From Nemertoderma westbladi (taxonomy: Eukaryota; Animalia; Xenacoelomorpha), in assembly GCA_032718475.1 (NCBI GenBank), contig JAUCBJ010007112.1:1-36381 (forward strand): a stretch of DNA of 36,381 nucleotides, written 5' to 3'. A model generated the notes under the pieces. The model ran no database searches, was not told the DNA's origin, and saw only the letters and a program-made list of their open reading frames with translations. This document shows positions 7,986 through 36,381 of the stretch, one piece after another (position 1 is the stretch's first letter; every line of letters starts with the position of its first letter). The translations under genes and the position numbers were made by a program.

Positions 7986-8033
7986 TATATTGATACCATA
8001 TCTAATTTTTTTTGGTCTCACTCTGAAATTGTG

Positions 8034-8336: not shown

Positions 8337-8433
8337 ACACAATTTTAGAGTGAGAACTATGGTGTCAATTTATTACAGCGATACGGTTTAAAATTTATCA
8401 CTTGTAATATTTTTCGTATTTATTATTATTATT

Positions 8434-8850: not shown

Positions 8851-8947
8851 ATGATTAGATATAGTCAATAACATTTCATTTCATTTTATTTTAATCTTTG
8901 GAGATATTTTATTATTATTATTATTATTTATCTAAACAAACTTCAAC

Positions 8948-9685
8948 ATGGATAAAATAAAAATATGTTGTTCATTCTGTCATATGAATGTAACTAGACA
9001 TAATTACTTACGCCACCTACGGTCACATTTTGAAGGTTATTCTTGTTTTAAGTGTCATGTCATGACTTCATGCAGCGAAATTTGTAAACGACATGAATCA
9101 ACTACTGGTTGTAAAGAAATGGAGTTCCGCACCTATCAATTGACTTGTTCTACCTGTAAAAAAAAGAGTATACATATGACAATTATCTACGACACGATTG
9201 TCACTTGAAATGTTACTACACAAGAAAGCGTAAATCTCTGCAACATAAAAATATATTATCTAGAAAAAACTTAAGGGTGGCTCTTGGTACATGCGCAACA
9301 ATTTTTACGCGGGAACAAGAAGCTCACGATAATCGTCTTGAAATTTATGTCCACGACCTCCCAACTTCTAGAGATTATCCCGATGTAGAAACAGCATTAA
9401 CGCAAATTCGAGGTAATATTCTTCAGTTAATATTAGACAGATTGAAAGAAATGAATGTTCTTAGACTGTGGTTAGGTCTAAATGTATTAATGTACAGATC
9501 ACATTTTTCAGAAGGTGAGCAATTGGAAACCTTTTATTTTAATTCTTCCGGTGGTGCTATTAATACTGTAGATTTATCACAAAGTTTTGACACATGGTTT
9601 GAGTATGTGGTGGGAAATATATTACAAAAAATAGCCATGTTTAACACACGTGGCTCCGGGTGGCGTATTAAATCTTTATTAAGGG
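8948..9685 (+). pseudogene. pPolB-A 5' part (Zn-finger region to GSGW motif)
   Basis: CxxC-x9-YLRHLRSH finger; frameshift in the A8 run at 9158-9165; ends NTRGSGWRIKSLLR at the LTR insertion. Collinear with the pPolB-B N-terminus. Confidence 0.85.
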
Positions 9686-10913
9686 TGTAAAAGCTTTTAC
9701 TGAATTGTCCGGTTATTTTTCCTTATTTTTCCCGTAAAGTACTCTGTAGTTGGTTTACCAGGCATAAAAAGGCCGTGTCCTTGCTGTACTGGTGTTTTAG
9801 CGGACATAAAAGCTATTTCTTCTGTATTTGTACTTTAGAGGACATAATCCGTAATTCCGTGACGTAAAAGCTCGATACTCTTGAAAACAGTGTCGCTACC
9901 ATGACGACGGCTAGCAGCTGATATTGCCACGTCGACGTTTCTTTGTTTCTCTGTTCTCTCGTTGTTCATGTTGACCAATCAGAGCGTTTGTGATCTCTGT
10001 GTTGGAGGTATATACAGAAACTCAGTAGTTCAGTGTTATGTTTTTGTCCAGAGCCTAAGAACCGGCTTTGGCACCTCCGTGTTTTAGTTTTTAGTCTTAC
10101 ACTAGTAGGTTTAATTATAAAGGGCATATATCCTTTAACGCACCTACCTGACTCATGGAATCACTGCATACTGATGACTGATGTCTGCATACTGCAGTAC
10201 TGCATACACTGCATACTGTGTAACATTGTGCATACCTTTATATTGTTATACTGCTATTTACCGTCAGTTCTTCATAATATGGTTGATGAATAATTATATT
10301 TGGAATAACGATAAACAACCCCGAAACCCAATGTTCTTGATATACCGAAGGTAAGAGAGAAGGGTTACAGATAAACGATTGTGACTTATGTTAAAGTGGT
10401 TTGAAGTGAATCTAATGTTATTTGATAGACCCTACATGAGCCAGTCTGTGTTCCTTTTATATGTGACTAAAATCAGTGAAGATCGGCAGATAAGTGTGCA
10501 GTATTGTGCAGCATTGTGTATGAGTGAGTCTGTTAAAGAAGCATTCCTAAAGAATGCGCCATATATGTGAATTATAATTAAGCCATATCGTTGTGAGTGG
10601 TTTAAGTCATAACTCTGTTTATATAGATAAAGCGCCACGTCCTAAAGGAACTGTTAATATTCCCGAAGGTGAATAATATTGTCAGAGATTATATAATACT
10701 GTCAGTCGAATAATACATTAGGCTTACATAGCAATAAAATTAAACCGTCGAACCCAATCTCCCGGGAATTTCCAGCGGGTGAATGGTCGCGCACGGATTG
10801 GTTTCGACTAGTGTAGTGAATCAAATACTTGTCATAGACTAAAAACTGATTTAATATCTAGAAGACATCTTAATTTGGTGGGTTAAACTGCCAAAGGTCT
10901 GAAAGCGCGAACA
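9686..10913 (+). repeat. 5' LTR of BEL element 1
   Basis: TGTAAAAGC...GCGAACA. CCAAT at 9975, TATA-like at 10009, TCAGT at 10022 and 10030, AATAAA at 10733. No difference from the 3' LTR noticed. Confidence 0.96.
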
Positions 10914-10980
10914 TTAAAGGATATAGCTTCTTTGTTGCAGTAAGCAATAAAGTTGAAAGTACCGGTCAACCGGTAAACCT

Positions 10981-14960: not shown

Positions 14961-15718
14961 ATAAATTTAAATTCATGTCTTTTAATGAATTTAATAAATT
15001 GCCATTTTACGCAATTTATAACATTCCCAAAATTCCATTAATTAATAGATCAAGGGAGCGGAGATTTATATTATTATGCGTATGCGTGTACGAAAGTCTC
15101 CCAAACATAGTCAATAGCCGATAAAATTCATAAAGTCATGTATAAAACCGAACATTGACTATTAAAGAATACTATTAAATAACATCCCAGATCTGTATGC
15201 ATTGGAACTACCCTAATTCTACCGCTAGCTTTGCATAATGTCACCATAGCAACAACCACGCTAGAATTAGAATTGAGTTAACGAAAAATAGAAAGCCTGT
15301 CCCATTGAATAGCATAGGGAATAAATAGCGCACTACTAGTATCCAAGGATACATAATAATACAGTGACATTCTGGAAGGCATTGACTAACGGACAAATGG
15401 CCCGAATGTGTGTAATTTGTGACAAGTTGTGCGTGTGGTATTTGTGAGTTTATAGGTGAATGTTACTGCTAAGGTGTGTTTACAGTAGCTAGTCGCAATC
15501 GTAAAAGTAACCTAACTCTCCAAGGAAAACCTGAAGTACATCTAAGTCTTTGGGACGGACAGTCGAGTGACTTGTGTCGGTTGTCGTTGTCGTTGTGCGG
15601 CTACGTCGTTGGCGAAAGTACAGCGGCGACGACACATCGGCGCTGAGGATCTCGTACTGTCCGGGGGTTAATTGGAGTAGGCAGCGACGCTTGCTAGCCT
15701 GAATATAAACTCCTTATA

Positions 15719-16051
15719 ATGTGGATAAACTCATATATAGCAGACATGATGGAGTTGATAGCAGATGTTCTTGGTATCGGGGAGCGATATACTCTACTTT
15801 TGCAAGCGTTTGTTGATAGCTTAATACGCGGCGACGTTAGTCCAACTGCTGCGGAGGACGATGGTCGTTATATCGAACCGCCAATGTCCCAAGAGCAGCT
15901 CGCGCGCGAGTTGGACTATAGAAAATTCGCTGCTCGATATACGCAGCGTAATGGTACGTATATGGTCTTCTTAACCACTGGTCATCCTATCGATTTACAC
16001 AATACTGACTATGTCGACTATATATCCTGCCCAGCGGAGTCGGAACCATAA
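15719..16051 (+). CDS. Hypothetical 110-aa ORF in the 3' internal region of BEL element 1
   Basis: ATG-started ORF with protein-like composition; no recognisable domain. Confidence 0.35.
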   Translation: MWINSYIADMMELIADVLGIGERYTLLLQAFVDSLIRGDVSPTAAEDDGRYIEPPMSQEQLARELDYRKFAARYTQRNGTYMVFLTTGHPIDLHNTDYVDYISCPAESEP

Positions 16052-17157
16052 ACTGAAATCCGAATGCGAAAATTCTATTCGAAATCGACTCGAAAGAAAA
16101 GGCACTAAAGAAACAAATAAACGCGGTAACTCCAACGTATATTTGGAATTCTTGATAGAATCATTGTAACTACAAATAAATATCATCCGCGTTTCCCCTA
16201 CCAGACGTGCGTCTTGGGTATTATTACGGTAAATGCCCTAGACCCAGCCAATAAACGGAAAGACATAAACATCCACGGAAACGTTGTGTTAAATACAGTT
16301 GTGTTCGTTATATTTACTGGAGTTTCGAGCGAAACTTGTTTGACGTATCACCTATGCTCACTCGGCTCTAACGATCCTAGAGTAAACCTACGATCAGAGT
16401 CCCGGAATACTCGGTCAAACCTCCTCATTCCTTAGTTGGACCTCAGACCTGCGATCCTGGTGGTGGCGCGGATCCTCGCGGACGGTATTCACTGTTCAAA
16501 GATCTAGTGCTACCCTAACAATTAATCGGTAACACTCCGACAGTGATTTCTAGCTAGCCGCCCATCTTACCTAGCCGGATTGTGACGCGGACACCTAATA
16601 TCACTATCCAACCGTATGGTCGTCCCCGTTTAACGCGATACAACCCCTCATCAAGGTGAAGGAGAGCTTTGTACGAAACGAGTTAAACGCTATTCTATAA
16701 AGATCAAAAGAGAAACCTGCGTTTGTTCAGATAAACGTAAGTTATAACAGTAAGTCCAGTCGATAAACGAATTGGCCTTATCTCAATTCGATTGGGAAAT
16801 CCAGAATCTCTAAGAAGTTATCGAACTTGGACGATCCTATTCTCTGCGAGAGTTTTTGGATGAACGTATCCAGCTACGAGCGGAGGAAAATCAGCTCGAG
16901 GAGAAGCATATCGAAACGGCAGATACCTCGACCATAAACCTACACCTTCTGATGCAATCATATTGCACCCTTCACCCAGGAGTTATGGCCCTCCTAGTAA
17001 AGTGGCTCCCCCCAAAGAGAAAAAGACTCTTGCTAGCCTCAAAAAACTGCGTAAACGCCGTCTGCGTAAGAAAGACTAACTGTTTAGAGTATCTTTATGT
17101 TTTAGAAACTGTGATTTTTATATTTTATAGACTGAAAATCCCATTTTCTGGGAGCGG

Positions 17158-18385
17158 TGTAAAAGCTTTTACTGAATTGTCCGGTTATTTTTCCTTATTT
17201 TTCCCGTAAAGTACTCTGTAGTTGGTTTACCAGGCATAAAAAGGCCGTGTCCTTGCTGTACTGGTGTTTTAGCGGACATAAAAGCTATTTCTTCTGTATT
17301 TGTACTTTAGAGGACATAATCCGTAATTCCGTGACGTAAAAGCTCGATACTCTTGAAAACAGTGTCGCTACCATGACGACGGCTAGCAGCTGATATTGCC
17401 ACGTCGACGTTTCTTTGTTTCTCTGTTCTCTCGTTGTTCATGTTGACCAATCAGAGCGTTTGTGATCTCTGTGTTGGAGGTATATACAGAAACTCAGTAG
17501 TTCAGTGTTATGTTTTTGTCCAGAGCCTAAGAACCGGCTTTGGCACCTCCGTGTTTTAGTTTTTAGTCTTACACTAGTAGGTTTAATTATAAAGGGCATA
17601 TATCCTTTAACGCACCTACCTGACTCATGGAATCACTGCATACTGATGACTGATGTCTGCATACTGCAGTACTGCATACACTGCATACTGTGTAACATTG
17701 TGCATACCTTTATATTGTTATACTGCTATTTACCGTCAGTTCTTCATAATATGGTTGATGAATAATTATATTTGGAATAACGATAAACAACCCCGAAACC
17801 CAATGTTCTTGATATACCGAAGGTAAGAGAGAAGGGTTACAGATAAACGATTGTGACTTATGTTAAAGTGGTTTGAAGTGAATCTAATGTTATTTGATAG
17901 ACCCTACATGAGCCAGTCTGTGTTCCTTTTATATGTGACTAAAATCAGTGAAGATCGGCAGATAAGTGTGCAGTATTGTGCAGCATTGTGTATGAGTGAG
18001 TCTGTTAAAGAAGCATTCCTAAAGAATGCGCCATATATGTGAATTATAATTAAGCCATATCGTTGTGAGTGGTTTAAGTCATAACTCTGTTTATATAGAT
18101 AAAGCGCCACGTCCTAAAGGAACTGTTAATATTCCCGAAGGTGAATAATATTGTCAGAGATTATATAATACTGTCAGTCGAATAATACATTAGGCTTACA
18201 TAGCAATAAAATTAAACCGTCGAACCCAATCTCCCGGGAATTTCCAGCGGGTGAATGGTCGCGCACGGATTGGTTTCGACTAGTGTAGTGAATCAAATAC
18301 TTGTCATAGACTAAAAACTGATTTAATATCTAGAAGACATCTTAATTTGGTGGGTTAAACTGCCAAAGGTCTGAAAGCGCGAACA
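17158..18385 (+). repeat. 3' LTR of BEL element 1
   Basis: Copy of 9686-10913 at offset 7472; the ORF-track translations of both copies are identical. Confidence 0.96.
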
Positions 18386-18390
18386 AAGGG

Positions 18391-20561
18391 TTGAAATTAA
18401 ATTAGCTGAATCTAAGTGTAGGTCATTACTATATAAGGGGCATGGATATATGGAATTACCTAAGGCTTTATCAGCTAAAAAATGTACAATAAATATACAA
18501 ACAGCTGATAATGATTGTTTCAAATGGGCTATTATATCCGCAAAATTTGGTAGCAAAGTGAAAAATAATAAAAACCATACTTCATCGTACAAAAATTATA
18601 TGAGTCATTTCATTTTTGACATTGGGAACAAAGATTATCCAACAGAGTGGCAGTTAGCGATTAAACTTTTTGAAAAACAAAATTCAAAATATATAATTAA
18701 TTTACTATTTTGGAATAACGACAACAAACGCACCCCTGTATCTATATTAAGACAACCTCCGTTTAGTAAAATTACACCTGATAAACAATTATTAAATATA
18801 TTACTTGTAGTAAAAAATAACAATGTACCTAAACTGAATCATTATGTTTGCATAACTAACTTGAATCGATTGCTGAATACGAGAGCTCTTCATACCCAAG
18901 GTAGGCAATATTCTGAAAGGTGTTTGACACATTTTTTTCGAGCAGAAGTTCTTCTTCGACACTGTCTCATATGCTACCAAGGAATAAGTCAGCGCGAGAA
19001 ACTACCTAATAAAAAAAGAACACACATTAGTTTTACAAATTTAGATAGAACCTTATCCCCATTGTTTGTCACCTACTTTGATATAGAATGTATCTTACAA
19101 CCTTCAGTTAATAATCAATTTATACAGGAGCATATACCGTGTGCGGTGAGTTATTTAATTGTTCCCAATAGTGAATTAATTGATGCTCCAAAATGTCATT
19201 TGAAAACATTTGTAAAGACAAATAATAATAATTGTATTCAAGATTTCTTAGATTCATTATATACTGATTTAACTGAATTATGTTGTTGGTCAGACATATA
19301 CACTCATAAAACTATGCCATTTACTAATATTGATTTTGTAAATTTTGAACAAGCAAAATTTTGTTTCTATTGTAATGTTACTTTAAATAATAATGTAGGG
19401 AAAAACAGACACCATTCACATATTACTGGTAAATATATTGCAGCAGCCTGTAATAGTTGTAACCGAAGTTTATCATTGAAACGAAACCTGTATGTACTTT
19501 GCGGGCACAATTCCAGTAATTACGATATACATTGTATATTACAAACCGGATTTAGAGATAAGAAATACACAGATTGTGATATAAAGGTTATACCGAGAAA
19601 TACAGAACGATATATTTCACTGAGTGCATTTATCCCAATTAAAAACACTTCTAAAAAAATTGAGTTACGTTTCTTAGACACATATCAATTTTTAAGCTTT
19701 TCTTTAAGTAATTTAGTTGAGTGTTCAACAAAGGATGTAGCGAGTCATGATATAAGCTCAATTTTACCTATCACTATACAAGAAATGAAATATTTTTATC
19801 CAAACTTGAATAACTCAACAATTAAACGGAAAGGAGTATTTCCATACGAGTACTTGACAGATATTAATAAATTTAATGATACTAGTTTGCCATCTATAAA
19901 TAATTTTTTTAGTAACTTAAGTCAAAAAACATGCACAATTGAAGATTATAGGTTTGCAAGATTATCATGGGTAGAATTCGACTGTGTGAATCTCAAAGAT
20001 TATCTTTTAGCCTATTTAAAACTCGATGTTTGTTTGCTTACTGATATATTTGAGAATTTTAGGAATGTTTGTAAACAAAATTACGATTTAGAAGTGGTTT
20101 TTTACTGTAGTATCGCATCATTTACCTATGATTGCGCGCTAAAATATAATAAATGTAAAATAGAATTAATAAAGGATTATCAGACATATAGAGATTTTAA
20201 AAAATCAATTAGGGGTGGTGTTTCATTTTGTCGAAAGCATTATATAGAATCAAATATACCAGGAACAAGTACATATGATTATACTAAGGAAGAATGCCAT
20301 ATTTTTAATATTGATTTCAACTCTTTATATTCTGGGAATTTAAGTAAAAAACTACCCACCTCGCAATTCAAAGAAGTAAGTATTAAACATTTAGAGAATG
20401 CAATTCCAGAAAAACTAATCGAGTACTTGGTAGATTTAGACATTGATGGATCTACTGGATATTTTTTAATATGTGATTTAAATTATCCTAAAGCTATTCA
20501 CGATTACAATTACCGTTAGCACCAGAGCATTTAAGTATAAATTAATCAATGCTTTCACCTT
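18391..20561 (+). pseudogene. pPolB-A 3' part (exonuclease, endoVII insertion, Pol motif A), truncated
   Basis: Joins in frame with 9685 (SLLR-VEIKLAESKCRSLLYKGHGYMELPK). Motifs YFDIEC, HHSHITGKYIAAACNSCN, HNSSNYD, KGVFPYEY, YLKLDV, IDFNSLYS. Frameshifted LPLAPE near 20510; motifs B and C absent. Confidence 0.92.
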
Positions 20562-20641
20562 AGTAGTAATAGTATGCCATCCTCTGCGACAGTTTAGTCC
20601 CACTTCACACCTTGGGTGTTAAGTAGGTCATTAATTAATTA

Positions 20642-20741
20642 ACCAATTAATTAATTGGTCGATTAAACAATTAATTAATTGTTTAATCAATCGATTTGTA
20701 TCAAATAATGTTGCCAAAGGCAATTTAATTTGACACAAATC
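20642..20741. repeat. Cluster of three palindromes near the Polinton B terminus
   Basis: Perfect 18-bp (20642-20659) and 28-bp (20661-20688) palindromes centred on TTAATTAA; imperfect hairpin at 20693-20741. Confidence 0.9.
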
Positions 20742-21454
20742 AATCAGATAGGGACGCGAGATGAATAAATTGTACTACAGCAAATGAAATATACAATACT
20801 GTAGGCACTGTGCAATACAATATACAGTACATTTGTATTATTTTTGTCGTACAGTAGAAGGTAAAGATAGAATGAAATATAAAGACTCGAACGAGGCCCA
20901 AAACATAATTTACCCTTTCAAGAAAATAAAATGGGCCAGTTTGGCCCCGGCTCAGTCCCTCAATAATCTATGGCTGCTTGGGCTCTTATTAGACGTAGCA
21001 TGACTAACCCCACCAATGTCAACGTGTAGGTGGGGGCTGCCACGAATTTTAAATTATTCAAACCTACAGCTTCATTATTATGTCAATTCGCCTAAGAAAA
21101 TTATAATAAACATCTGCTCTTGCAATAGATTGCATTCTTTCGCATTGTACTTTATGAAGCAGTCCACGCGCGTATTAGCTCAACAACAAAGCCATCGCCC
21201 AAACGCCATGTGTCAAATTAACCCCCAACCATATCTATACTACAGTAGATACTGTAGTTTTTTTTTTTGTTTGAAGTAATTTCAGATGCTCTAGTATAAC
21301 ATTAATTAGCATACCCAGTCTGACGCAGCAACCCATTCATTACACACACTTTTCTCCAGCGCACCCCCCGCTTCTCAATTCATCCCATTTCCCTTCGTAA
21401 CTAATGTTTTACATTTAATGAACCCAATGAAATGTGTTTATTATTCCCGCAATC

Positions 21455-21817
21455 CAATAGCACGTCACTCTCCCCCTCTTTTTTATTTCTATTGGTTCCC
21501 CACAAGCTTTACTTTTATTTTCATTGGTTACCCTTTCCCTTATAAACCCCCATCCATCGCTTTGAACTTTACTTACAAAAATATTATTAACCATTTTACT
21601 TTTTATTTAAAGTTATAATACATTTATTGTTATAAATAATATATTGTTGCAAACATCATTTTCTTTTTCCAACACCACGAATCAATCTGCAGGTAAGAAC
21701 AATAAATTTGTATTTTTATGAATTCGTTTAGTTTTAACATTATTGCCTCAAAATAAAAATCAACCCCACGAAACCTTCCCAAACTTATTATTATTATTTA
21801 GTTTTTTTATTTTATAG
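21455..21817 (+). promoter_or_regulatory. Putative Pol II promoter and 5' UTR intron of pPolB-B
   Basis: CCAAT/ATTGG at 21455, 21491 and 21523; TATAAATA at 21631; TCATT at 21656; CAG|GTAAGA donor at 21693; T-rich TTTTATAG acceptor ending 21817; ATG at 21823. Confidence 0.55.
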
Positions 21818-21822
21818 CAAAC

Positions 21823-24800
21823 ATGCCTATGTCACCAAAATTTGTTGACTGTCTGCAATAAGAACATGCGTAGCGATCATCTCAACAAACATCTCGCAAC
21901 TCATTTTAAACAATATTCATGCGATTGTTGTGGCACCTGGTCCTCTGATAAGAAAAAGAAAACTATGGTTAGCCATCTAGCGCTATGTACGCAAGGTGGG
22001 ACTGGGTTCAGATTTATCAACGAAGAAAACACTTGCAAATGTGGCGAATCATTCACTTTATCAACCTTTAAAGAACACGATTGCTATACGCGGCTCTTCT
22101 CTCGGAAACGCAAACAATCTCAAGCGCTTTTGTCACCACCACCTCCACCAAACATTCAATCTCCAAGGGTTGGCCCTTCTACTTCAAGACAACAGACTGG
22201 AGGTTCGACCAACAACCCATTTTTACCATCCGTGAATAGCTCATCCCACAACCGCTTATTTACATATACAAACACCTTACTTACACCACAATTAGATGTA
22301 GAGTTAACACTTAGAGAAAATGAAAGTAATATTTGGGATAGAGTGAGTCAACATTTTAATAATGAATTTAATTTTATAAAAGTTTGGTTAACTATTTCTA
22401 TCTTAATGGAAAGGGAGATATTCTGAGGGTACACAATTAGAAACCTTTAGTTTCAAATCAAACGCTTCAAATAATCAAATAACTTCTAATTTAGATTTTG
22501 AAAACTGGTTTTCGCAAACTATTGAATGAATAGATGAATTAATAGCTGTCTTTGTTTGCATGGGCAGTGGTTGGAATATTGTTTCAATTAAAGAAATCAA
22601 TTTACAAATTTCTACCTTCAATCGCAACCCCTATTTCAAAGGACACGGTGGCGGTTATATTCCTAAAATTTTAGCAAAGAAGAAGTGCATTATTAACTTA
22701 GATTGTCCCATCGGGGAATGTTTTAAGTACGCAGTAGTCGCTGCTGCTTGTTATAAAAAAATTGAAAGAAAGAAACAAAACATTAGTCGATTGTCAACAT
22801 ATACTCCATACATGACCATGTTTGATTTCAGTACGATGAGTTTCCCAGTAGATAGAGTAGTAGGCATCCCACGTTTTTTAGAAACCAACCCTTTGTACTG
22901 CATTAATTTATTATTTTGGAGTACTGATAACATATTGAGCATTCTATCACAACCAGATTCAGAACATTGCTTCCAAAAAACTGTTTTACATTTAATGTTT
23001 ATAGAAGGTAATCAAAACAATCCAGGACATTACTGCGCAATTGTCAACTTAAATAGACTTATTAAAAAACAAGGACAAGGGACCAAATCCATTTGTGAGC
23101 GTTGTCTGAGAGCTTTTTATACTATTAACTCATTGCAAACTCATCGGGAACTATGTTACACGAGCAAACGACAATTGGAACAAATGCCTACACCAGATAA
23201 ATTAAAAATTAAATTCAATCGATTAGATAAGACTTTATCCCCTCCATTTGCATATATGCCGATATTGAAAGTGTTTTAGAACCTACATCAAACCCTAAAT
23301 TAGTTCAAAAGCACATTGCTAGCGCCGCCGCATTTTATACAGTACCCAATCGCGAGCTAATAAATCCCCCACAAACATCATTACAAATGTTTAGAGACAC
23401 TGGAACAAACCATGTTATAGACGATTTTCTCACTGCTCTCGAATCACACTGTAGGCAATTGTACGAGTGGACTATTTCTGGTACAAACACCAACGTTCCT
23501 AAACATTTGACTCGAGCACAGAAACAAAATTTTGATAATGCTACAAACTGTTACACTTGTAACTGTTCTCTAACCCCTGATTCACATCGACTGAATCTAG
23601 CAGAAAATCTCAATACTAAAGTTTGTGACCATAACCATCTAACGGGAGCCTATCGTGGAGCGGCATGTGTTAGTTGTAACCGCAAACTTTCTCTTAAACG
23701 CAATAAATTTTATGTAGTGCTACACAACCTGAGGCATTACGATTCCCATTTAATCTTAAAAGAAGATCTGAAAAACAGTTCTAGAACTCATTGGAAGATA
23801 AACGTAATTCCAAAGAACACTGAGACTTATATCAATATAGAAATATCATTTCCCATAGACAAAACCATGCAGACAGCAAATGCAAAAGAAAGTATTGTCA
23901 TCAATCTTCTAGACTCTCTACAGTTCATGACAGCTAGTCTAGATAAGCTCAGTAGTTATCTTACTGCAAACAATTCTGATCTAACAAAAGCTATCCCACA
24001 CACTTTGAAACAAATGAAAAATCTTTATCCCAATATTAGCAATTCCACTATTAAAAATAAAGGTATATTTCCTTATAGCTATATACAATCCATAACAAAC
24101 TTATACGAAACTCAATTACCACCAATCGAGAGTTTCTATAATGATTTACAGCTTGAAGACTGTAGCGAGCATAACTATCAGCGTGCCCAAACTAGTTGGG
24201 TTGAGCTTCAATGTCAAAACATATTTGATTATATGATGGGATACTTGGCTCTAGATGTCACACTTCTCGCGGATACTTTCCAACAGTTTAGGAAACTATG
24301 TTTCTCCAATTATGGGTTAGATCCTCTGCATTATTATACTTCACCGGGGTTAACGTACAATGCAGCATTGAAATTTACAAACAGTGAAATTGAACTACTA
24401 TCTGATGGAACTATTTACGCAGATTTTGAAAATAATATTCGCGGAGGGCTTGTATTTCTGAATACACACTTAGAGGAAGCTAATATACCTGGCAAACCAG
24501 AATACAACCCCTGTAAACCAGAAAAATACCTAATTCCTCTCGATGCAAATAACCTTTATGGTTCTGCTCTCTCTCAGAAGCTCCCCTGCAGCAATATGAA
24601 AATCGTCGATACACCAATAGATCTGGCTACAGTTGATGCCACTGGGTCAGTAGGATATTACTGCATCGTTGACCTCAAATACCCCCGAGAGATCCACGAC
24701 GAAACTGCTGACCTACCACTAGGAGCAGAAAAAATGTCCATTCCCAAGAGCTTCCTCAGTACATACATGCAAGACCTCTGGCAACATTATAATCTCAATG

Positions 24801-25875
24801 ATCAAGGGACCTATAAGCAATATAATGAGAAATATAGTAAACTGATTCTTCATCAATTCAAAAAAACTAATTATGGTATTCATATAAAATTACTCCAATT
24901 ATACTTAAAATTAGGACTTCAAATAACACAGGTGCATAAAGTATACTCATTCACTCAAAAATACATATTCAGAGACTATATCTCGTTTAATACATCCAAA
25001 CGACAATCTGCTAAAAATGCATTCGAAGTTTTATTTTATAAACTACTCAACAACTCACTCTATGGGAAAAGTCTTCAGAAGGTACGAGACCGGTTATCAT
25101 TCCGACTCTGCACATCCCCAGAACAGTGCGACCTGCTAATATCAAAACCAAATCATGAGCGCTTCATCTCATTCTCCCCCTATCTCAGTGGTCACACTTT
25201 TACTAAAGAAGTAGCAGTACTCAATCAAGCTGTATTTATTGGGGCAACCATCTTAGATCTTTCAAAGCTAGAGATGTATGATTACTATTACTGTAAACTG
25301 AAACCTCTCGAAGAAAAGCTGAGATGTGAAATTCGAGCCTTAGCCGGGGACACGGACAGTTTCTTTCTTTCGGTTACCGGTGTTGAGCACAAATTATTCC
25401 TAGAAGCCATGTTTAACTCCGGCTTTCTAGACACTTCAAATTACGATCCCTCACACCCCCTCTTTACAAATCAAAACAAGGCTTCCTTAGGTTTTTTGAA
25501 AGATGAAAGTAGAGGTCTATTATACAAATCATTTGTATTTTTGAAACCGAAAATGTATTTATTCGAGGCATACGACGCGCAACCAAAGCGGACTTGCAAA
25601 GGCATTTCAAAAAATATTGTAGCAAAGCAATTAACAAATAAACACTATTTAGACTGTTTTATCAACGAATCAACAGATTTCACAAACAATACAATATTTA
25701 CTTCTAGGGAACATCAAATGTTTACAGGGAGAATAAAAAAAAAACATTAAGTCTCTGGGATACAAAATCATTCTGGATGACGAAATATTACAGTAGACCA
25801 TATGGCCACTATATTACAGGATTAACTAAACCAACAAAAAAAACTGTAATACCACCTTATTTAGTTGCAGAATAA
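21823..25875 (+). pseudogene. pPolB-B: full-length protein-primed family B DNA polymerase with N-terminal Zn fingers and endoVII insertion, disrupted
   Basis: GSGW, YADIES (Exo I), DHNHLTGAYRGAACVSCN (endoVII), HNLRHYD (Exo II), YLALDV (Exo III), LDANNLYG, KLLNNSLYGKS, GDTDS, C-terminal LSLWDTK..PYGH. Frameshifts near 21845, 22415, 23250 and 25740; premature TGA near 22526. Confidence 0.95.
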
Positions 25876-25876
25876 A

Positions 25877-26058
25877 ATGCCATACAAAGCAAGCAGCGGA
25901 TCAACACCAATTCAAATAATCAATCGTCAATATACAGCTCAATCTGAATTTCCAATTGATATAATCAAAGTTTCTCAACAACTAAAAGGTCAGATGCGGC
26001 AAAAACCAAAAATGTTTGTGTATAAGACTGGATCTGCGACAATTATGCTATTCCCAAC
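25877..26058 (+). pseudogene. TBP-like protein, 5' part (first TBP repeat)
   Basis: MPYK..IQIINRQYTA..PIDIIKV..ATIMLFPT. ATG one base after the PolB stop; interrupted by BEL element 2. Confidence 0.72.
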
Positions 26059-26598
26059 TGTGACGGGATCTACGGATCCCGGTTTATCCGTTGGGTTTTC
26101 TATCCACGCGTCCCCGCCGTGTGTGAAAGGTAAAAGAGTTCTGATGTTGGGTAATATGTATAAAGGTATAATAGTCTGACAGTTGATATAGTATAGTATG
26201 ACACAACAGGTAATATATAATGGCGGTAGCGGACGGTGACAGAAGTCCCCGTTCCACCCTACTGATCTGACTGAGTAAACTGACTGAATAGGGGAGCACC
26301 AACAGGTAATATACTGCACGGTTGGCCTAATTGCTACCTAGTCGATGCTGTCCCCCCATTGGCTAATATCCCACTTCTCGCCCCTTCACCTTCCCTGGTG
26401 TGTTTCCCGTTCACCCCAGCTATTCTCTCTCTTGTCAGGGGAGTAACCCCTGACCCTTATTGTGTGTGTCTCCTTTGGGGCCTATTGTCCCCGTTTACTG
26501 GGCTGACACGAGGTTGATTGGTAATCAACCTCGTGCTCCCAATATTGCTTTATGGCTCACTCTATGGGTTTGTGTTAGCGGAATTGGATAAGCTAACA
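26059..26598 (-). repeat. 3' LTR of BEL element 2
   Basis: Direct repeat of 32918-33457, adjacent to the polypurine tract. Confidence 0.96.
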
Positions 26599-26959
26599 CT
26601 CCCCCCCATGCTATCTTCCCGGTGAGAAGATAGCATCCAACTCAAGTGCGCTACAATTCCGCTGGATCCCGATCTATTATCGGGTGTGGGGTGGGTCTAT
26701 TTTTTCGGAGTCGGCTTTCCAGGCCGCTCCCTATGGGTATGATGTCACTACCCTCTGGCGTCTCGTGTCGGGCCGATCGTGCGCTTCTCTCACGCAATTT
26801 TTGTTTCCCCAACACTCTCACCACTATACTCCAACTCTCGCATACCCCCGGACCTCCTCGTCCCACACTCTTCCTCTCACTTCTCCTCCCCCACACTTGA
26901 ATTGCGCCCACGCTCTCTTCGCACTCCGCACTATCACTCCATCACTCTCTCGTCACTCC

Positions 26960-28950
26960 CTAAGGCTTTCTACCTACTGCTTACTAACTCTAACTATCTA
27001 ACTAACTCTGCTAACTACTAACTCTTACTACTTCTAGCTCTAACTGAGAGCCTCTAACTTTCTACTGACTCTAACTCTCTACTAAGTCTAACTAACTCCT
27101 ACTAACTTTCTACTTCTACTAACTCTACTTGACTCCTCTGAGTCTACCAACTCTGCTAACTAGCTCTACTAACTCTACTCCACTAGCTCTGCTAACTCTA
27201 CTCCACTAGCTCTGCTAACTCTACTAACTAGCTCTATTAACTCTACTCCACTCTTCTAACTACGTGGCGCTTGCGGTGCCCACAACCACTCTACTATATG
27301 GCACCCTATGTGCCCTCTCTGCTCTACTCTACTACCTGGCACCCTATGTGCCCTCTCTACTACACTACTCTATCTCTAACTCTCTAACTCTACTACCTGG
27401 CACCCTACGTGCCCGTCTCTACTCTTCTACTCACTGGTACCCTATGTACCCTCTCTACTACCTCTAACACTCTACTCTACTACCTGGCACCCTATGTGCC
27501 CGTCTCTACTACTCTACTCTATCTCTAACTCTCTAACTCTACTACCTGGCACCCTATGTGCCCGTCTCTACTATTCTACTCTATCTCTAACTCTCTAACT
27601 CTACTACCTGGCACCCTACGTGCCCGTCTCTACTCTTCTACTCACTGGTACCCTATGTACCCTCTCTACTACCTCTAACACTCTAACTCTACTACCTGGC
27701 ACCCTATGTGCCCTCTCTACTCTTCTACTACCTGGCACCCAATGTGCCCGTCTCTACTCCTCTACTCCCCCTTTACGTCTCATCGCCTACACGTGACGCT
27801 CTGAGTGCCGGCAGAGTGGGTACGTTAATTATGTGAACTACTACTGACTCTACTAACTCTCTTCTAACTCTACTAACTCTTTTTGTGCCCGGCACCTCTT
27901 GTGCCCGGCACCTTCTAACTCAACTAACTCTACTAACTCTCTACTAACTCAACTAACTCTACTACTAACTCAACTAACTCTACTACTAACTCAACTAACT
28001 CTACTACTAACTCTTTTTGTGCCCGGCACCTCTTGTGCCCGGCACCCACCCTAATTAACATACCCTGCTCTTACATCAAACACGTCATCACGCCCGTGCC
28101 CCACTAAGTTCAGCGCATTCCCTACTAACTCTAACTGCGTGGCGCTTCCGGTGCCCACAACCCTTCTACTGCTACTACTAACACTCCTATCTAGCGGTAC
28201 TACGTACCCTCTTACTACTCTAGCTCTCTCTACTAGCTAGCAGTACTACTACCCTCTTCTAACTCTTACTCCTTAACGGTACTACGTACCCTCTAACTCT
28301 TACTCTCTAACGGTACTTACGTACCCTCTAACTCTAACTAACTAGCGGTACTTACGTACCCTCTAACTCTAACTCTAACTAGGTACTACGTACCTACTGA
28401 CTCTCTAACTAGGTACTACGTACCCTCTAACTCTAACTAACTAGCAGTACTTACGTACCCTCTAACTCTAACTCTAACTAGGTACTACGTACCTACTGAC
28501 TCTCTAACTAGGTACTACGTACCTACTAACTCTAACTCTAACTAGGTACTACGTACCTACTAACTCTAACTCTAACTAGGTACTACGTACCTACTAACTC
28601 TTCTAACTCTCTAACGGTACTACGTACCTACTAACTCTAACTCTAACTAGGTACTACGTACCTACTAACTCTTACTAACTCTCTAACGGTACTACGTACC
28701 TACTAACTCTAACTCTAACTAGGTACTACGTACCTACTGACTCTCTAACTAGGTACTACGTACCTACTAACTCTTACTAACTCTCTAACGGTACTACGTA
28801 CCCCTTAACTCCTACTCTCTAACGGTAGAGAGACTCTCTAACTCTACTCTAACACTAACTATCAGTGCTAACTGACTAACTAACTAACTCTGACTCTAGG
28901 TACTACGTACCTCCTAAATAACTCCTAACTACCTAACTTCTACCTACTTT
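26960..28950 (-). repeat. Low-complexity CTAACT/CTACT array studded with short hairpins
   Basis: Plus strand almost G-free except in GGCAC-N5-GTGCC and GGTAC-N3-5-GTACC units. Confidence 0.92.
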
Positions 28951-28972: not shown

Positions 28973-31900
28973 TTAAATAATTATTTTATATTTTGTGCGT
29001 GGGAAGGGCGTCTCGCCCTCATTCCCACCCCCCTCAGTCCAAAACTTTGGACGACTAAAAACTCTCACGTGCCCCTTCTTCCGGTAGGCACTCTCCCGCT
29101 GCCCTCCTATACGTCCTCTAACTCTTCGCCACACTCTCTTCGGTGCCACCTTTGCTGGCCTCCCCCTTCGTATGTGCGCTGGCATTAGAGCCCTCGACGA
29201 CCCCCGCTCGTCCCTCGGTATACGCGGTGTCTGCCCGTGTAATGCCCCCTCGCACTGTGTCCGTCCTGCGTGTGTATGCAACACGCCTCCTCCTACTTTC
29301 CCGACTCCCTTATGTTTGCTAATGGGCTTCTCTGCCCCTGGTTTAGTCCTTTCATATCCTCTCCCTTTCCAACACTCTCCGGATCTGTGTCCTTTTACCA
29401 CACATCGATGACATAGTCCGTTTGCGTCTGTGTAGGCTACACGATCTCGTTTGGGCAACGCTTGCCAGTACTTGCAACTCCTGGTCTTATGGGTTCCGTC
29501 CCGATGTAATTGACATTGGAATCCTGGATTATAGCGTTTCCTGTATAGTCCTTCACGTATCGCGCTTAGGTTTATATGTACCGATTTAATGTTTTGGTTG
29601 TCTAGACTCGGCCTACTGGGTATATTGGGATTGTGTTTATTTTTGGTGTTATTTTCTTTCTGTCCCTGCCACGGTGTGGCCCTGCTACCACCTAACTGTG
29701 GACTAGCAGTCCCCTGTACGGCCGCGTGTGGTATTGACTGTCCGCACGACCTGTTCTCGTCCAAGGGGTTCGATGTTCTCGCTCCTATTGGGGTATATTG
29801 TCGATATTGTGATGGGGGAATGTCACCCTGTCCCCCCCCAGCCGGTATGTTTGGTACTGGGGTTGATGTTAATACATTGGGGCCCATACGTCTATCTCCA
29901 ATAACTCCCCCCTCCCCTGGATATATGTTATGTCCCTGTGTATTATAGTCATGCTGCTGTACCGATATAGGCCTACCTACCTCTCGCCTACCTACCGGTA
30001 TGTACTCCGCGACTTCCGGGTTTAATCCCGTCGTTCGCGCTACCCCATCGCCTACTCTATCTCTCCCAGCATGGCCTATAATAGTATGTGCAGTAAGGCC
30101 TACAGTATGTCCTGCAGTCTGCATGTGCCCTTCCGAACCGAAGTTTATTCTTCGCGAATCTCGAATCTCCCCGCGACTACTGCACTCTCGATCGGCAGCT
30201 ATATCCCGTCGGGAAGTTTCCCTTCGATCCCCTCTCCTGCTCTCGTCTTCGTATTGGTACGTCTTGTACCCCTCTCTTGGCGTGCGGTGCGTTTCTCCGG
30301 GGCGACGGCAATCTCCCGAAGTTCGACCCCACTGGCTCCCTGACTCCATCTCTACTATCGACGGTCCGTTATCCGTCCTCGCACTCCTATCGTTCGTGGC
30401 GACACCTTTTCTACTATCTTCTCTTCTTCTCTTTTCTGTGTAGTATTCCGGCTCGTGAGGTCTCTCGTCGACCTCCCGGTTAAACTCCACTGTTCTTCTT
30501 CCCTCTTCTGGTCGGGCTCGACGCTTCGTCTGCCCTCTCGCGACGTCAACCTGCTTCTCTCTGCTCGATCGCACGCCGCTGGGGATACTCGCAATCCCCC
30601 TATTACTCTCCGTCGCCGGGTGTTGCGGTTTACCTGATTCGGCCCGCGCATTATCCGCTGACGGCTGTGGGACACTCTCTGCCCCCCCTCTCTCTCTACT
30701 AATCTCTCGCGGTGGGGTGCCCGCAGCCCCCCCCCCACCCGCCACTTCTAACTTCACTATCTCTTACTACACTTCTGCGTCCCTCTTGTCGGACATTCTC
30801 TACCCCCCTTCTCTCGCCACTAATCTTATGTGGTGGGGCGCCCTGTAGCCCCCCCCCCCCACCCGCTACTTCTAACTTCACTACTTCTTACTACACTTCT
30901 ACACCCCTCTTGTGGGGCATTCTCTGCCCCCCCTCTCTCGCCACTAATCTTATGTGGTGGGGCGCCCGTAGCCCCCCCCCCCACTCGCCACATCTAACTT
31001 CACTATCTCTTACTTCGTCTCTACACCCCTCTCTAGTCGACGCACTGTCTCTACTACGGCTGGGTCTATTCACCCCCGCCTCTCTCTCTACTACTGCGTG
31101 GCCCATCAGGCCCACCTTCGGGTTGGCTCAACCCCGCTACCTCCTGCCTACCAACTACGTGGCCTACCAGGCCGCCGTCGGGTTGGCTCAACCCTGCCAC
31201 TTCCTGCCTACTAACTACGTGGCCTACCAGGCCACCGTCTGCCGGGTTATGTACGTCCGACACGCTCATATTAATAGCACCATTCCCAATATTATTTGTT
31301 AAATCAATTAAATTATTAGAATTTGAAACGAGATTTAAATTATTTAAATTAGAATTATTATATATTTTCAAAATTTAAATTATTATTCGTATTATTTGAT
31401 TATTCTGATATTTGAATTAATGTTATTATTTGAATTTAAATTTAAATTACTACTACCCGGTAAAATATTATTTCCTGTAATAAAGGGATTAGGGTTATCT
31501 ACTACGGTACTATTAATATTAACTACTTCTAACGTACTACTACTACCCCCCTCGCCCGTACGGCTACACCAGTTCTGGTTCTCTCGCCCGGTGCCTGTAA
31601 GTGGGGTCTCACTCTCTGACATTTCCAACCGCGCCGGTTCTAGTCGGCGCCGCTCCAGTTTGGCTTGATATTGCGCAAGCCTGCCTAGCCGGGCACGCAA
31701 ATCATCCCGCACACGCTCTGCCTCTATCTCTCTCTCTATGCACTCTCGTAAACTTTGCTCGGCCAACTCGGTATCTCTCGCAACCATCTCAAACCGCCTC
31801 GCCGGCTCGCTCTCTACTCTCATCTCCCGCTCTCTACACTCCTTGACTCTCTCTCTACACACCTCGACTCTCTCTCTATCCTCCCTTGCCCACTCTCTTT

Positions 31901-32667
31901 CTCTCTCTATAACGGCGGCATTATCCCTCAGTTGCCGCTCTGTGCTATTCAGCTTTGCCGCTACCATTTCTAATTCATACGTCAGATTTATTTTCAGCAC
32001 CCTTCTTTCTTTCGCGGAGGATGTAGCAGACTTATCGGTTGCGACGGACTCCCGTCGCCCCTCCGTCCTACCAACTTTCCCCCGCCTCCCGGAACTCCCT
32101 GCCTCCGACCGACGAGACCGAATCCTCGGAGTTAACCTCGGATTCGCCCTCCCCAGGTCTCTTCCAACCCACTAATTTTATATCCTGGGCATCGACTAAG
32201 TATGGCCCTATGTACACTACACTAGGTCCCATACCCCCACATTCCCATAGTTCAAACAGTTCGAAGGCAACTCCCCACGCCCTCAACTCTGCTAGTTCTC
32301 TCTGCCCAGAACGCACTAGGTGATCAAAGTATCTGTTCGACTCACCTAGTCCCTTTGTCATCCTGACCTCGTCTATCCTCGCCCCCTCCTTGGCCTCCTT
32401 TAGTAGTTCCCGGGTCGCGTTGTAGGCCCGTCGAAGTCGATCAGAAACCCCGACGTCCTCGTCGCCGACCTCTCCTCCGTCTCTCCGGGTCCGACGTCGT
32501 ACCGACGGCCCCACCGTCGCCGTTCCGGTGGACCGTTCGTCGTCCTCGGCCTGTGGCTGACCGGTGACATCGGTACGTCGACCCTCGCTCCGCGTCGACT
32601 CGTCTTTCTCTTCTCTCCCTCTCGTCTCCTCGACTCGACTCCTCTCTTTGTAGACGACCCCCCACAT
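28973..32667 (-). pseudogene. BEL/Pao Gag-like polyprotein broken into several frames
   Basis: Consecutive ORFs 32667-32068, 32000-31392 (coiled-coil-like), 31371-31066, 31115-30891 and 30757-28973. Last ORF has CQLH..H....C..W..L....R.......LCHRC..KGH....C knuckles. Internal 60-bp and about 120-bp coding repeats. Confidence 0.8.
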
Positions 32668-32917
32668 CTTGGTTCGCCGGGTCGCTCGTTATCGACGTGG
32701 CGTCAACGCACGTCGACGTGCGTAGCATCGACCGGCGTCGTGGGTTCGTATCGTCTCGCCGTGGCCTCGCGGATCGTTAGATCGTCGTCCGGGGTCCGCG
32801 GCGGTGTCGTTCCTTTCTCTCGACTCATCTTCGTCTTTAGTAGCTGGTCGTCACTAGCTAGGACGGTAGCTCTATTCTATCTCTGTCAGGGCAGCTGGGC
32901 GGATCTAGTTCTGTCAC

Positions 32918-33457
32918 TGTGACGGGATCTACGGATCCCGGTTTATCCGTTGGGTTTTCTATCCACGCGTCCCCGCCGTGTGTGAAAGGTAAAAGAGTTC
33001 TGATGTTGGGTAATATGTATAAAGGTATAATAGTCTGACAGTTGATATAGTATAGTATGACACAACAGGTAATATATAATGGCGGTAGCGGACGGTGACA
33101 GAAGTCCCCGTTCCACCCTACTGATCTGACTGAGTAAAGTGACTGAATAGGGGAGCACCAACAGGTAATATACTGCACGGTTGGCCTAATTGCTACCTAG
33201 TCGATGCTGTCCCCCCATTGGCTAATATCCCACTTCTCGCCCCTTCACCTTCCCTGGTGTGTTTCCCGTTCACCCCAGCTATTCTCTCTCTTGTCAGGGG
33301 AGTAACCCCTGACCCTTATTGTGTGTGTCTCCTTTGGGGCCTATTGTCCCCGTTTACTGGGCTGACACGAGGTTGATTGGTAATCAACCTCGTGCTCCCA
33401 ATATTGCTTTATGGCTCACTCTATGGGTTTGTGTTAGCGGAATTGGATAAGCTAACA
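32918..33457 (-). repeat. 5' LTR of BEL element 2
   Basis: Direct repeat of 26059-26598. Minus-strand TATA-like GTATATTA near 33170 followed by TCAGT near 33145. Confidence 0.96.
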
Positions 33458-33462
33458 CCAAC

Positions 33463-33805
33463 TGGTTCAATAACAATAGTGGGTCCATGTAAAAATGTTT
33501 GTAGTGATTTACTTTATCTGAAACAATGCACCAACATATTAATTAAGAAAATTAAATTAAATACAGTGACCAGACTAATTAAGTTACCATCTCTTAATTT
33601 TAAATCATTAAGTAAAAAGTGTGGACATCATTTTGTAAACAATGTAAAGGTATATATTGATTTTACGCCGGAGCTCTTTTGTGGAATTCGATTGTATATT
33701 GGGCGATGTTATTTCAGTGTCTTTCACTCGATGAAAGTTATAAGTATGTGTCCTGTTGGTGATTTTGAAGAAGCTCTTATTATATTATTTAGTTTATTGA
33801 ATTAA
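33463..33805 (+). pseudogene. TBP-like protein, 3' part (second TBP repeat)
   Basis: GSITIVGP...KLNTVT...DFTPELFCGIRLYIGRCYFSVFHSMKVI; joins in frame to 26058. Confidence 0.75.
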
Positions 33806-33813
33806 TAAGTAAA

Positions 33814-33995
33814 ATTATCTCTCAATATACTACATGTCATTATACTCTATGTGCGGTTTTATATATTTATGTGATTATACTGTCTCTCAATATACTATAT
33901 GTGTTTATATTATCTCTCAATATACTATATGTCATTATACTGTATGTGCGGTTTTATATATTTATGTGATTATACTGTATGTGGTTCTATATATT
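33814..33995. repeat. 95-bp AT-rich tandem duplication
   Basis: attatctctcaatatacta.atgtcattatact.tatgtgcggttttatatatttatgtgattatactgt at 33814 and 33909. Confidence 0.85.
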
Positions 33996-34339
33996 CATGT
34001 AACATATATACTAATTATAGTTTTATTAAATTTAAGTAAAAAATATATTGATTTATATTATTAATAACATCTTACCTTGAGAACAATTCTCCCAAGTAAT
34101 GGGGACCCACCTCTCCTCCCGAAAAAAGACCGTAAGGCCAAGTTTTACTGCACTTGTTCTCCATTGAGTGATTAGTTGTTAAACTGGTGAATTCAATATA
34201 TAAATTTAAATATTTACTAAAGCCGCTAGATGGCATGCATTTGTGATGCGAATATTAGTTTCATATTATACTGTATAAACGTTAAAAGTCAATTATTATT
34301 TTAATAAATATAATAATAATTGTATTATAAAAGGAAAAC

Positions 34340-34782
34340 ATGATGAATATAGGAGATATGCGGTTTCGTTTTGGTAGTACAATATTAATAGCCGGTCCTA
34401 GTGGTAGTGGAAAAACGTCTTTTTTGGAGAAAATGTTATTGAATAGGAAATTGATCTTTAACGAAACCCCAAACAGTATTACTTGGTTTTATGGACAGAC
34501 GAAACCAATAATTAAAGGGGTTAATATTACCGCTTTAAATGAAATTCCAGAACACTTTAATGAAAATGTGAAAAACCATTCTATCATTATAATCGACGAT
34601 TTGATGACAGAACTACAAAATTCCAAACAAGCGACTACGCTAATTACTAAAGTAGCTCGACATACAAATTCATTGGTAATTTTTCTCACTCAAAACCTTT
34701 ATCAAAAAAGAGGAGAATCTAGGACCCGTTCCATTAATTCCACTTATTTCTTATTGTTCAAAAATCCAAGGGATCAGACACA
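34340..34782 (+). pseudogene. Polinton DNA-packaging ATPase (A32/FtsK-HerA family), interrupted
   Basis: Walker A AGPSGSGKT, Walker B IIIIDDLM, ARH, FLTQN, LFKNPRD; cut by the Gypsy LTR at 34783. Confidence 0.92.
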
Positions 34783-35060
34783 TGTAGCGGCGTTATTCTC
34801 AATGAATAAATCGAAGCGCGGGTTATTATGTATTATAATAATAATAATAGTTAGCAATGCATTGCTACTGTAAAGATATAGATATACCGGGATAGGGCCG
34901 CAGTCATCCGTATAGCACACAGCGTGCCGGTACTGCAGTGTACGGTACCAAAAGATGATAGATGGACAGTCTGTATGTAAAACTCCACATCGTCCGTTGC
35001 TAGGCAACTAGGGACGCCACTACTGTATATCTCCTAAGTCCCGCATACAGTATCGCTACA
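34783..35060 (-). repeat. 3' LTR of the Gypsy element (278 bp)
   Basis: Terminal inverted repeats TGTAGCG...CGCTACA with an adjacent polypurine tract. The partner LTR is not in the window. Confidence 0.82.
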
Positions 35061-35114: not shown

Positions 35115-36381
35115 TTAGGTGGTATATCTTTCCGGACGGCGGACCTGTCGGCCGGAACGAGTCTGAAACGTGGACGACGTCGTGGTGGGAGGTTTCGAGT
35201 GGGCCTTGGGCCTGGCGTAAGGACTGGTATGTCGTGCTGGAGTGGCTGCTACGGCAGCGTAGGAAGGCGCCGGAAGGTCGGGATCTGACGAAGATGCCGA
35301 CGGTGCCGGTGGGATCGTGGGCGGCCGCGGAATGAAGGCAATCTTCAGTCTGTCGATGGAGACATGATCCAGGCGGCCATTGAGGTCAAGGAGGAAAGTT
35401 TTTGGCTCCACCTTAATGATTTTGTAGGGGCCAGCATAGGGGCGGTTGAGAGGTCCTACATGACCACCACGGCGTACATACACGTAACCTGTCGAGGCCA
35501 GGGATGCCGGGATGTGGGAGGTTGACGGTGAGCCGTGGAAGTTTGTCGGCGGGGGAACAGCTGACTTGAGGCGTTCCTTGAGGTCGGAGACGAAAGCTGA
35601 GGATGGAGTCTCTGTTCGCGCGGACCCAGGGCCCACGAACTCGCCAGGCACGTGGAGGGGGGTGCCATAGACGAGGTCGGCGGGTGAGCAGCCAGGGTCC
35701 TCCTTCCAAGCCGTCCTGATCCCGAGTAGGACTAGTGGGAGTTCGTCCATCCATTTCGGTCCATGTAGACGGGCCTTGAGCGATGCCTTGAGTTGGCGAT
35801 GGAGTCGCTCGATCATCCCATTCGCCTGTGGGTGGTAGGATGTAGTAGTGGAGGCCGAGATGCCGAGGAGGTTGTGAAGCTCGGCCCACAGGTGAGAGGT
35901 AAACTGCGCCCCGCGATCGGAGGTGATGTCCCCGGGTATCCCGAACCTGGCGATCCAGCCCCGTAGAAGTGCGCGGGCACACGTCTCAGCGGTGGCGTCG
36001 ATAATGGGGATGGCCTCAGGCCACCGTGTGAACCTGTCGATGATTGTGAATAGGTAGCCGTGGCCTTCCGATGGTGGAAGTGGACCAACGATGTCTACGT
36101 GGAGGCTGTCGAATCGGGCCTCAGGGGCAGGGCGACTTTCTAGTGGCGCATGGACATGGCGGCCGACCTTGGAGGCCTGGCAGGCGGCGCACTCGAGGCA
36201 GCGTCGGCGCACGTCTTTCTTCATCCCATGCCAGATAAAACGCTCGGAGATGGCGCGGATGGTGGGCTTTGGACCGGCATGTGAGAGGCCATGGATGGCC
36301 TCGAAGATCCGGCCGCGCCAGCTATCCGGGACGACGGGGCGGTTCCGGCCCGTCGAGGTGTCGCACAAGACCGTGAAGTGA
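35115..36381 (-). CDS. Gypsy pol integrase region (HHCC, DDE, GPY/F), 5'-partial
   Basis: H.LSHAG..C..C, HVDIVGPLP, TSDRGAQF, YHPQANGMIER, YAGPY, C-terminal TRSGR. Confidence 0.96.
   Translation of the reverse strand, partial: HFTVLCDTSTGRNRPVVPDSWRGRIFEAIHGLSHAGPKPTIRAISERFIWHGMKKDVRRRCLECAACQASKVGRHVHAPLESRPAPEARFDSLHVDIVGPLPPSEGHGYLFTIIDRFTRWPEAIPIIDATAETCARALLRGWIARFGIPGDITSDRGAQFTSHLWAELHNLLGISASTTTSYHPQANGMIERLHRQLKASLKARLHGPKWMDELPLVLLGIRTAWKEDPGCSPADLVYGTPLHVPGEFVGPGSARTETPSSAFVSDLKERLKSAVPPPTNFHGSPSTSHIPASLASTGYVYVRRGGHVGPLNRPYAGPYKIIKVEPKTFLLDLNGRLDHVSIDRLKIAFIPRPPTIPPAPSASSSDPDLPAPSYAAVAATPARHTSPYARPKAHSKPPTTTSSTFQTRSGRQVRRPERYTT

Follow-up and report, generated by a model that had tools for sequence, protein, structure and literature searches.

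What primes reverse transcription in a BEL-derived retrotransposon whose 5' LTR is followed by no tRNA site? The question is raised by a locus of Nemertoderma westbladi (assembly GCA_032718475.1, contig JAUCBJ010007112.1), where a first reading of the letters alone (the sequence-only reading) had described a duplex between LTR and leader in two elements. We analysed the whole stretch of 36,381 nt, here called the window, and give positions in its numbering. The duplex of interest spans the 5' LTR/leader junction of element 2, an LTR retrotransposon of 7,399 bp on the minus strand, on which all features of this element given below lie.

Paired-repeat comparison delimits a 5' LTR of 540 bp (TG...CA, 32918..33457), from which the 3' LTR (26059..26598) differs by a single mismatch. 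The element is flanked by a 5-bp target-site duplication (upstream copy GTTGG at 33458..33462, downstream copy at 26054..26058), and a polypurine tract (26599..26607) adjoins the 3' LTR. Element 2 thus has the structural features of BEL/Pao: paired TG..CA LTRs, target duplication and polypurine tract. At the start of its LTR (33457-33433), a short inverted repeat with 7-bp arms could form a terminal hairpin. The interior holds a gag-derived ORF (28973..30763) with BEL/Pao-type zinc knuckles at ~29327-29671, two more gag-region ORFs of 206 and 259 aa (31392..32688) without family match, and tandem-repeat arrays (26950..28950) in place of pol. As pol, with its PR-RT-RH-IN order and RT phylogeny, is absent, element 2 is a deletion derivative and we file it as BEL-derived and non-autonomous.

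The knuckles were compared with 1.84 billion representative proteins. Two of the six hits are gag-type, P0004 (E 2e-4) and P0006 (9e-4); the remaining four, of which two were inspected, are repeat proteins or have a single knuckle. P0006 contains DUF1759, and longer relatives of P0004 contain both DUF1759 and the Pao marker Peptidase_A17. A pairwise comparison gave E 7e-13, and the gag is of BEL/Pao type. A Pfam search of the element's own ORFs gave no direct hit, and neither the gag knuckle nor the RNase H piece of element 1 (see below) matched any protein in word-based searches. A 24-nt LTR pattern had 0 matches among metagenome contigs, three scans of viral contigs had none, and all Atlas matches were <0.9.

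Contigs of public runs X1, X3 and X5 contain the empty site (26053 joined to 33458), while the interior of element 2 is covered by thousands of contig fragments in public runs. The insertion is therefore young and polymorphic, and its family abundant. Run X6, which we guess to be RNA, contributed 51 short contigs.

Pairing at the LTR boundary

The leader begins at the primer-binding-site position (32909..32917), adjoining the LTR end and without a TGG, and its bases 1-9 are complementary to an LTR core, TTCTGTCAC (33095..33103). All 9/9 pairs between 33103-33095 and 32917-32909 are Watson-Crick, in agreement with the sequence-only reading, which had also described a duplex of about 50 nt. The four helices of that duplex are all present, the further three being 33123-33112 with 32903-32892 (11/12 pairs, two G-U), 33134-33126 with 32889-32881 (8/9, with an A-A mismatch that had gone unmentioned) and 33150-33145 with 32877-32872 (6/6). 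Two of them form an outer 'clamp' with LTR arms at 33112..33134 (P ~0.9) and leader arms at 32881..32903. Since the LTR ends at 32918, the match begins at the first post-LTR base, and it shrinks from 9 to 6 nt when one LTR base is added. No TGG stands at the site, the first one after the 5' LTR lying 253 nt downstream, and the 18-nt site for a tRNA 3' end by which BEL/Pao elements are recognised is missing. Searches for tRNA genes or Rfam families within the window found none.

The anchored 9-nt match was reached in 1/2000 LTR shuffles and at 10/6278 internal positions. The 50-nt leader duplex has an energy of -46.8 kcal/mol, which was reached by 0/300 LTR shuffles, 0/300 leader shuffles and 0/125 internal windows (best -45.5); shuffled sequences hence do not give equally stable boundary-anchored duplexes. 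At 15 nt, duplex energy alone is unremarkable (10/300, 35/300 and 68/210), and when the LTR end is treated as unknown, a 9-nt match is reached by 16/200 shuffles. The antisense duplex is equally stable (-45.9 kcal/mol), so the G-U pairs do not mark out the sense strand energetically, as had been claimed. Folding of the whole region is only slightly more stable than that of shuffles (z -1.85, 5/100; plus strand z -1.48).

A TATA-like box at 33166..33172, the inferred promoter, stands 28 nt ahead of a predicted +1 at 33144, which lies in an initiator-like TCAGT (33141..33146) called by the initiator consensus. The sequence-only reading placed most of the paired LTR segment downstream of a start near 33145; the 33150-33145 helix is just upstream of the predicted +1 and would be absent from the RNA. 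In related copies, similarity of the loose ends breaks down upstream of 33148, but a TATA-like run stands at a similar distance (read by eye). A second TATA-like run at 33080-33071 would put the RNA start downstream of the primer. A fall in depth upstream of 33141 was dropped as start-site evidence, being confounded with the edge of the stretch.

In a modelled RNA starting at 33144, the outer helices form with P ~0.9. The core helix reaches only P 0.07 at 37 C in the uncut RNA (0.00-0.01 at 15-25 C) and lies 1.2 kcal/mol above the minimum, the primer end being captured by a U5 look-alike of the binding site (32957..32966). A modelled cut between 33095 and 33094 lifts the core helix to P 0.88. 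A U5 strand (32968..32977) pairs at P 0.99 with 33094-33088, the segment that immediately follows the predicted cut, and beside the binding site stands a U5 hairpin (32924..32939, P 0.98). The rise of the core from low before to high after the cut may be an RNA switch or merely model error of the fold. The look-alike is variable among copies, holding 5/16 substitution rows, which argues against a conserved decoy.

These rows are the 16 substitutions counted at ≥3% among copies of element 2, from unphased contigs with rare variants dropped. None of the 16 falls in the LTR arm 33095-33134. Only one falls in the binding site, at 32913, where it replaces a C-G pair by U-G; three runs from two samples carry it at 17-25% of depth. 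Variable positions make up 1/73 of the duplex arms vs 15/187 of the others (p 0.047); the difference is weaker for the LTR arm alone (p 0.079), and paired and unpaired positions overall do not differ (p 0.43). Covariation had been suggested as a check on the duplex, and these unphased contigs, stripped of rare variants, showed no two-sided compensatory change.

BEL relatives and tRNA-primed controls

Searches with BEL protein profiles retrieved 24 loci and 22 further regions. Most of these loci and regions sit in bacterial genome records and are likely on animal-host contigs. Many intact BEL retrotransposons (L007-L024, G001-G010) lie on long contigs in several bacterial records, likely animal-host DNA binned with the bacterium. 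Paired repeats fix the LTR end in 12 of the 24 loci, 10 with a TGG site and two (L010 and L011) without. The complement of the TGG sites in the 10 loci equals the last 12 nt of tRNA-Tyr(GUA) as given in PMC13524379. Together with five further families, these 10 make a control set of 15 TGG elements from about nine lineages. We excluded from the anchored test L009, L006, L014, L018, L024 and fragments, in which the LTR-leader junction could not be fixed from paired repeats, and L074, L076-L080, L088 and L089 as repeats of counted families or loci.

The 15 controls match their own LTR for 3-6 nt only (best 22/1000, a T-run). L010 and L011 have an 8-nt match to their own LTR directly after a pyrimidine-rich AG, and the match grows to 11 nt if a GTAAG donor further upstream is joined to it (1/1000 and 0/1000 shuffles). 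We also scanned blindly all CA ends of six single-LTR loci on the non-TGG side. This gave 13 nt across a splice-type junction in L008 (1/200) and 11 nt in L073, which at 13/200 is only suggestive; L084, L085 and L013 had no match. L002, the closest protein relative, gave 11 nt unspliced (4/200), and this match was set aside as likely a local hairpin, the LTR end of L002 not being fixed. In the same scan the true LTR ends came out on top for both element 2 (16/200) and L011 (3/200).

Predicted GT..AG introns lie in the LTRs of four relatives: L008:5459-6338 (493 nt), L010:7265-8311 and 183-242 (697 nt), L011:1484-1908 (76 nt) and L073 reverse 1-676 (399 nt). In all four, the predicted splice junction creates 11-13 nt of pairing with the post-LTR site. 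The core has P 0.94-0.97 in modelled spliced RNAs and 0.00, 0.00 and 0.84 in unspliced ones. A similar acceptor-core layout is seen in L009, whose contig lacks the leader. A splice-built primer was rejected for elements 1 and 2, in which the best spliced extension is 2 nt.

Across six elements, the site matches its own LTR for 9-13 nt vs 3-8 nt in 30 foreign pairings, the own-LTR values of L008 and L073 having been chosen by the scan and hence not being independent. In an RT-RNase H tree (33 rows, midpoint-rooted only), a branch with support 97/98 splits 16 TGG from four self-matching elements. An ACA|GT junction is common to element 2, L008, L010, L011 and L073, and the primer ends in A-C or A-A before C in 5/6 elements. 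In 4/6 elements a canonical poly(A) hexamer occurs between primer end and LTR end, and the ~45 nt ahead of the primer end hold one in 0/6, the arrangement needed for a primer taken from the 5' end. Element 2 lacks a canonical hexamer and has only a variant at 32947 near its LTR end. Backed by its relatives and by the tRNA-primed controls, element 2 carries a real boundary-anchored self-complementary primer site.

Element 1, the other element described at the outset, has a 5' LTR of 1228 bp (9686..10913, plus strand) identical to its 3' LTR (17158-18385, plus strand) and a target duplication AAGGG. It keeps a piece of BEL RNase H, and both elements are BEL/Pao-derived and non-autonomous. Its primer core (10127..10138, plus strand) is complementary over 12 nt to leader 10914-10925, an anchored match reached by 0/1000 shuffles. 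We found no LTR similarity between the two elements, bearing out the statement that their LTRs are unrelated. That they share one architecture is true of the boundary-anchored core but not of the rest: the primer segment lies 775 nt from the LTR end in element 1 and 177 nt in element 2, the extension is weaker in element 1 (-25.5 vs -42.5 kcal/mol), and the core of element 1 has P 0.00 in a 950-nt fold, cut or uncut, reaching 0.96 with short pieces only. Small extra ORFs without family match precede the 3' LTR of element 1 (15698-16051 and 16814-17209), and L001 and L002 likewise carry an extra ORF after pol.

The RNase H piece of element 1 scores 48.5 bits with the non-TGG profile vs 25.1 with the TGG profile, and the knuckle of element 2 scores 32.4 vs 26.9, a weak placement. 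As both elements score better with the non-TGG side of BEL, the pairing is likely inherited and not independently invented. The sequence-only reading had seen in it a conserved tRNA-independent priming structure and no coincidence. The shuffles, cross tests and 15 controls uphold the second half of that claim, while priming itself is inferred from position.

A candidate self-primer and its alternatives

Going by its sequence, element 2 probably primes from its own RNA in the manner of Tf1, although its predicted primer, at ~40-50 nt, is longer than the 11 nt of Tf1. The predicted self-primer (~50 nt, 33095..33144) would be released by a cut between 33095 and 33094. Pol II would initiate at ~33144, and the 5' end of the RNA would be held on the leader by the two outer helices. 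Cleavage would then fall to the RT/RNase H of an autonomous partner, after which the freed primer 3' end would settle on the binding site (P 0.07 before and 0.88 after the cut in the model) and be extended from the last LTR base. The resulting 177-nt strong-stop DNA would transfer to the 3' LTR copy, and the plus strand would begin at the polypurine tract. A bolder version, which we regard as possible but doubtful, extends this to a whole BEL/Pao branch without tRNA. Its members would obtain the primer by cutting their capped RNA in a common A-[C/A]|[C/G] context and some families would assemble it by splicing, while the family of element 2 would use a 50-nt leader-clamped primer, parked on the U5 decoy until cut, as a cleavage-triggered switch that times reverse transcription.

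It is unlikely that the duplex instead serves packaging, dimerisation or the control of translation as a structure of the 5' UTR, with priming by something else. Such a structure would suit the outer helices, at P ~0.9 whereas the core is disfavoured in uncut RNA, and an 11-nt primer of Tf1 type needs no long leader duplex. However, what the six elements have in common is a core that stops at the first post-LTR base and not the outer helices, no alternative tRNA site is present, and the TGG elements have no match. We give rather less credence to a host tRNA-Asp half, cut in the anticodon loop, as primer, with the LTR match as a by-product or a cover for the site. Leader bases 1-7 match 4/4 tRNA-Asp genes and the match ends in the anticodon loop, although these genes are bacterial and not the host's; five genome records searched for a eukaryotic tRNA-Asp yielded bacterial-type genes only. 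This 7-nt match compares with 9 nt and two further helices for the LTR, and a 30-nt duplex with the bacterial tRNA-Asp reaches -19 to -27 vs -29.9 kcal/mol with the LTR. Moreover, the relatives have different letters, each matched by its own LTR, and the site of L008 would require a non-U before the anticodon, where the U of tRNA is generally regarded as invariant. Half-tRNA priming as such has been described in plant copia lineages (PMC6317226).

A primer could also be the 3' end of the genomic RNA, if the transcript ended at the core copy of the 3' LTR (26236) and folded back without an internal cut. This we consider improbable, more so than the tRNA half: the same core is indeed present in the 3' LTR and element 2 lacks a canonical downstream hexamer, but a canonical hexamer lies upstream of the core in 0/6 elements and downstream in 4/6, and the variant of element 2 is the one near its LTR end. 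Chance, or a functionless inverted repeat at the DNA level, is the least credible reading and largely refuted already. The equally stable antisense duplex, the whole-region z of only -1.5 to -1.9 and the 16/200 shuffles with the LTR end not known beforehand would all be in keeping with it. Yet the second LTR and the target duplication fix the LTR end without recourse to the match, and four further elements repeat the anchored match in different letters.

Self-priming from the element's own RNA, the reading we prefer, has its model in Tf1. There RNase H cleaves between bases 11 and 12, and the 11 bases at the start of the RNA act as primer (PMC7175516), within a three-duplex 'pretzel' (PMC10085805). 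Such priming is on record for Tf1/sushi, and predictions exist for the plant Tcn1 and TAR lineages (PMC6317226). Also covered were PMC3601003, PMC6934838, PMC11042837, PMC3587641, PMC3286476 and PMC2864245. As with Tf1, Tf2, Tj1 and the Tf1/sushi group (PMC7175516, PMC4600332, PMC10085805 and PMC5341516), element 2 has no tRNA site, its post-LTR site can pair with a segment close to the predicted start of the RNA, and a cut 3' of the LTR segment would release a primer. Unlike these Ty3/gypsy chromoviruses, its gag knuckles match BEL/Pao proteins and chromovirus protein features are missing. The core would be nt 42-50 and not nt 1-11, with extra helices upstream of it. In the 'pretzel', LTR sequence downstream of the primer pairs on both sides of the site, whereas that of element 2 pairs with a U5 strand ~50 nt ahead of the site. 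In place of three duplexes, our pseudoknot-free fold model has a nested extended stem, a U5 helix and a hairpin. Relatives of element 2, again unlike Tf1, would build their primer across a predicted splice junction. Element 2 would by inference work like Tf1 but is no Tf1/sushi member.

For plant TAR/Houba/Osr-1 (Ty1/copia) and Tcn1, as for element 2, self-priming is inferred from complementarity outside yeast Tf1 (PMC6317226); these are plant elements of other superfamilies, while element 2 is metazoan BEL/Pao. Canonical Belpaoviridae, in the ICTV profile, are primed by tRNA (Arg or Gly), and BEL/Pao replication is called poorly understood there (PMC8742986). Element 2 resembles them in its LTRs, polypurine tract, gag knuckles and 5-bp target duplication and differs in having neither tRNA site nor pol. 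The BEL/Pao element Achilles is described as using a tRNA-Tyr primer (PMC4580426), the tRNA assigned also to the 15 controls, and the main BEL/Pao survey (PMC3118150) does not contain the words primer, tRNA or PBS. We found no report of BEL/Pao self-priming by title or abstract start, in a search with most subscription journals and Repbase reports outside its coverage. So far, proof of self-priming is limited to Tf1-type Ty3/gypsy elements, with a prediction for one plant copia lineage. If it holds here, all three LTR superfamilies would include tRNA-free lineages. Such elements would presumably not be controlled by the supply of tRNAs or by 3' tRNA fragments, and annotation tools that insist on a TGG site would overlook or misinterpret them. 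As element 2 is young and abundant, primer-cDNA junctions could be searched for directly in host tissue.

Genomic surroundings

Both LTR elements lie in a Polinton-like region (8392-9690, 18375-25750 and 33377-34873). It contains an A32-like ATPase (PF04665, E 4e-5) and two ORFs resembling DNA polymerase B of the protein-primed type, which have no Pfam or PDB hit and were recognised by motifs of that family. Element 1 interrupts one of these polymerase-like frames. The Polinton-like host element is likely present in many copies as well, given a summed depth of ~900-1100 for the empty site in two runs.

A short ORF is split by element 2 (25865-26056 and 33458-33805). Residues flanking the insertion resemble, judged by eye, a TATA-binding-protein repeat; a Pfam search of both pieces gave no TATA-binding-protein hit. 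The window also holds LINE-like RT and endonuclease fragments (3280-8001) and, at 35115-36381, a third element with a Ty3/gypsy-type integrase ORF (rve, Integrase_H2C2) that runs off its end.
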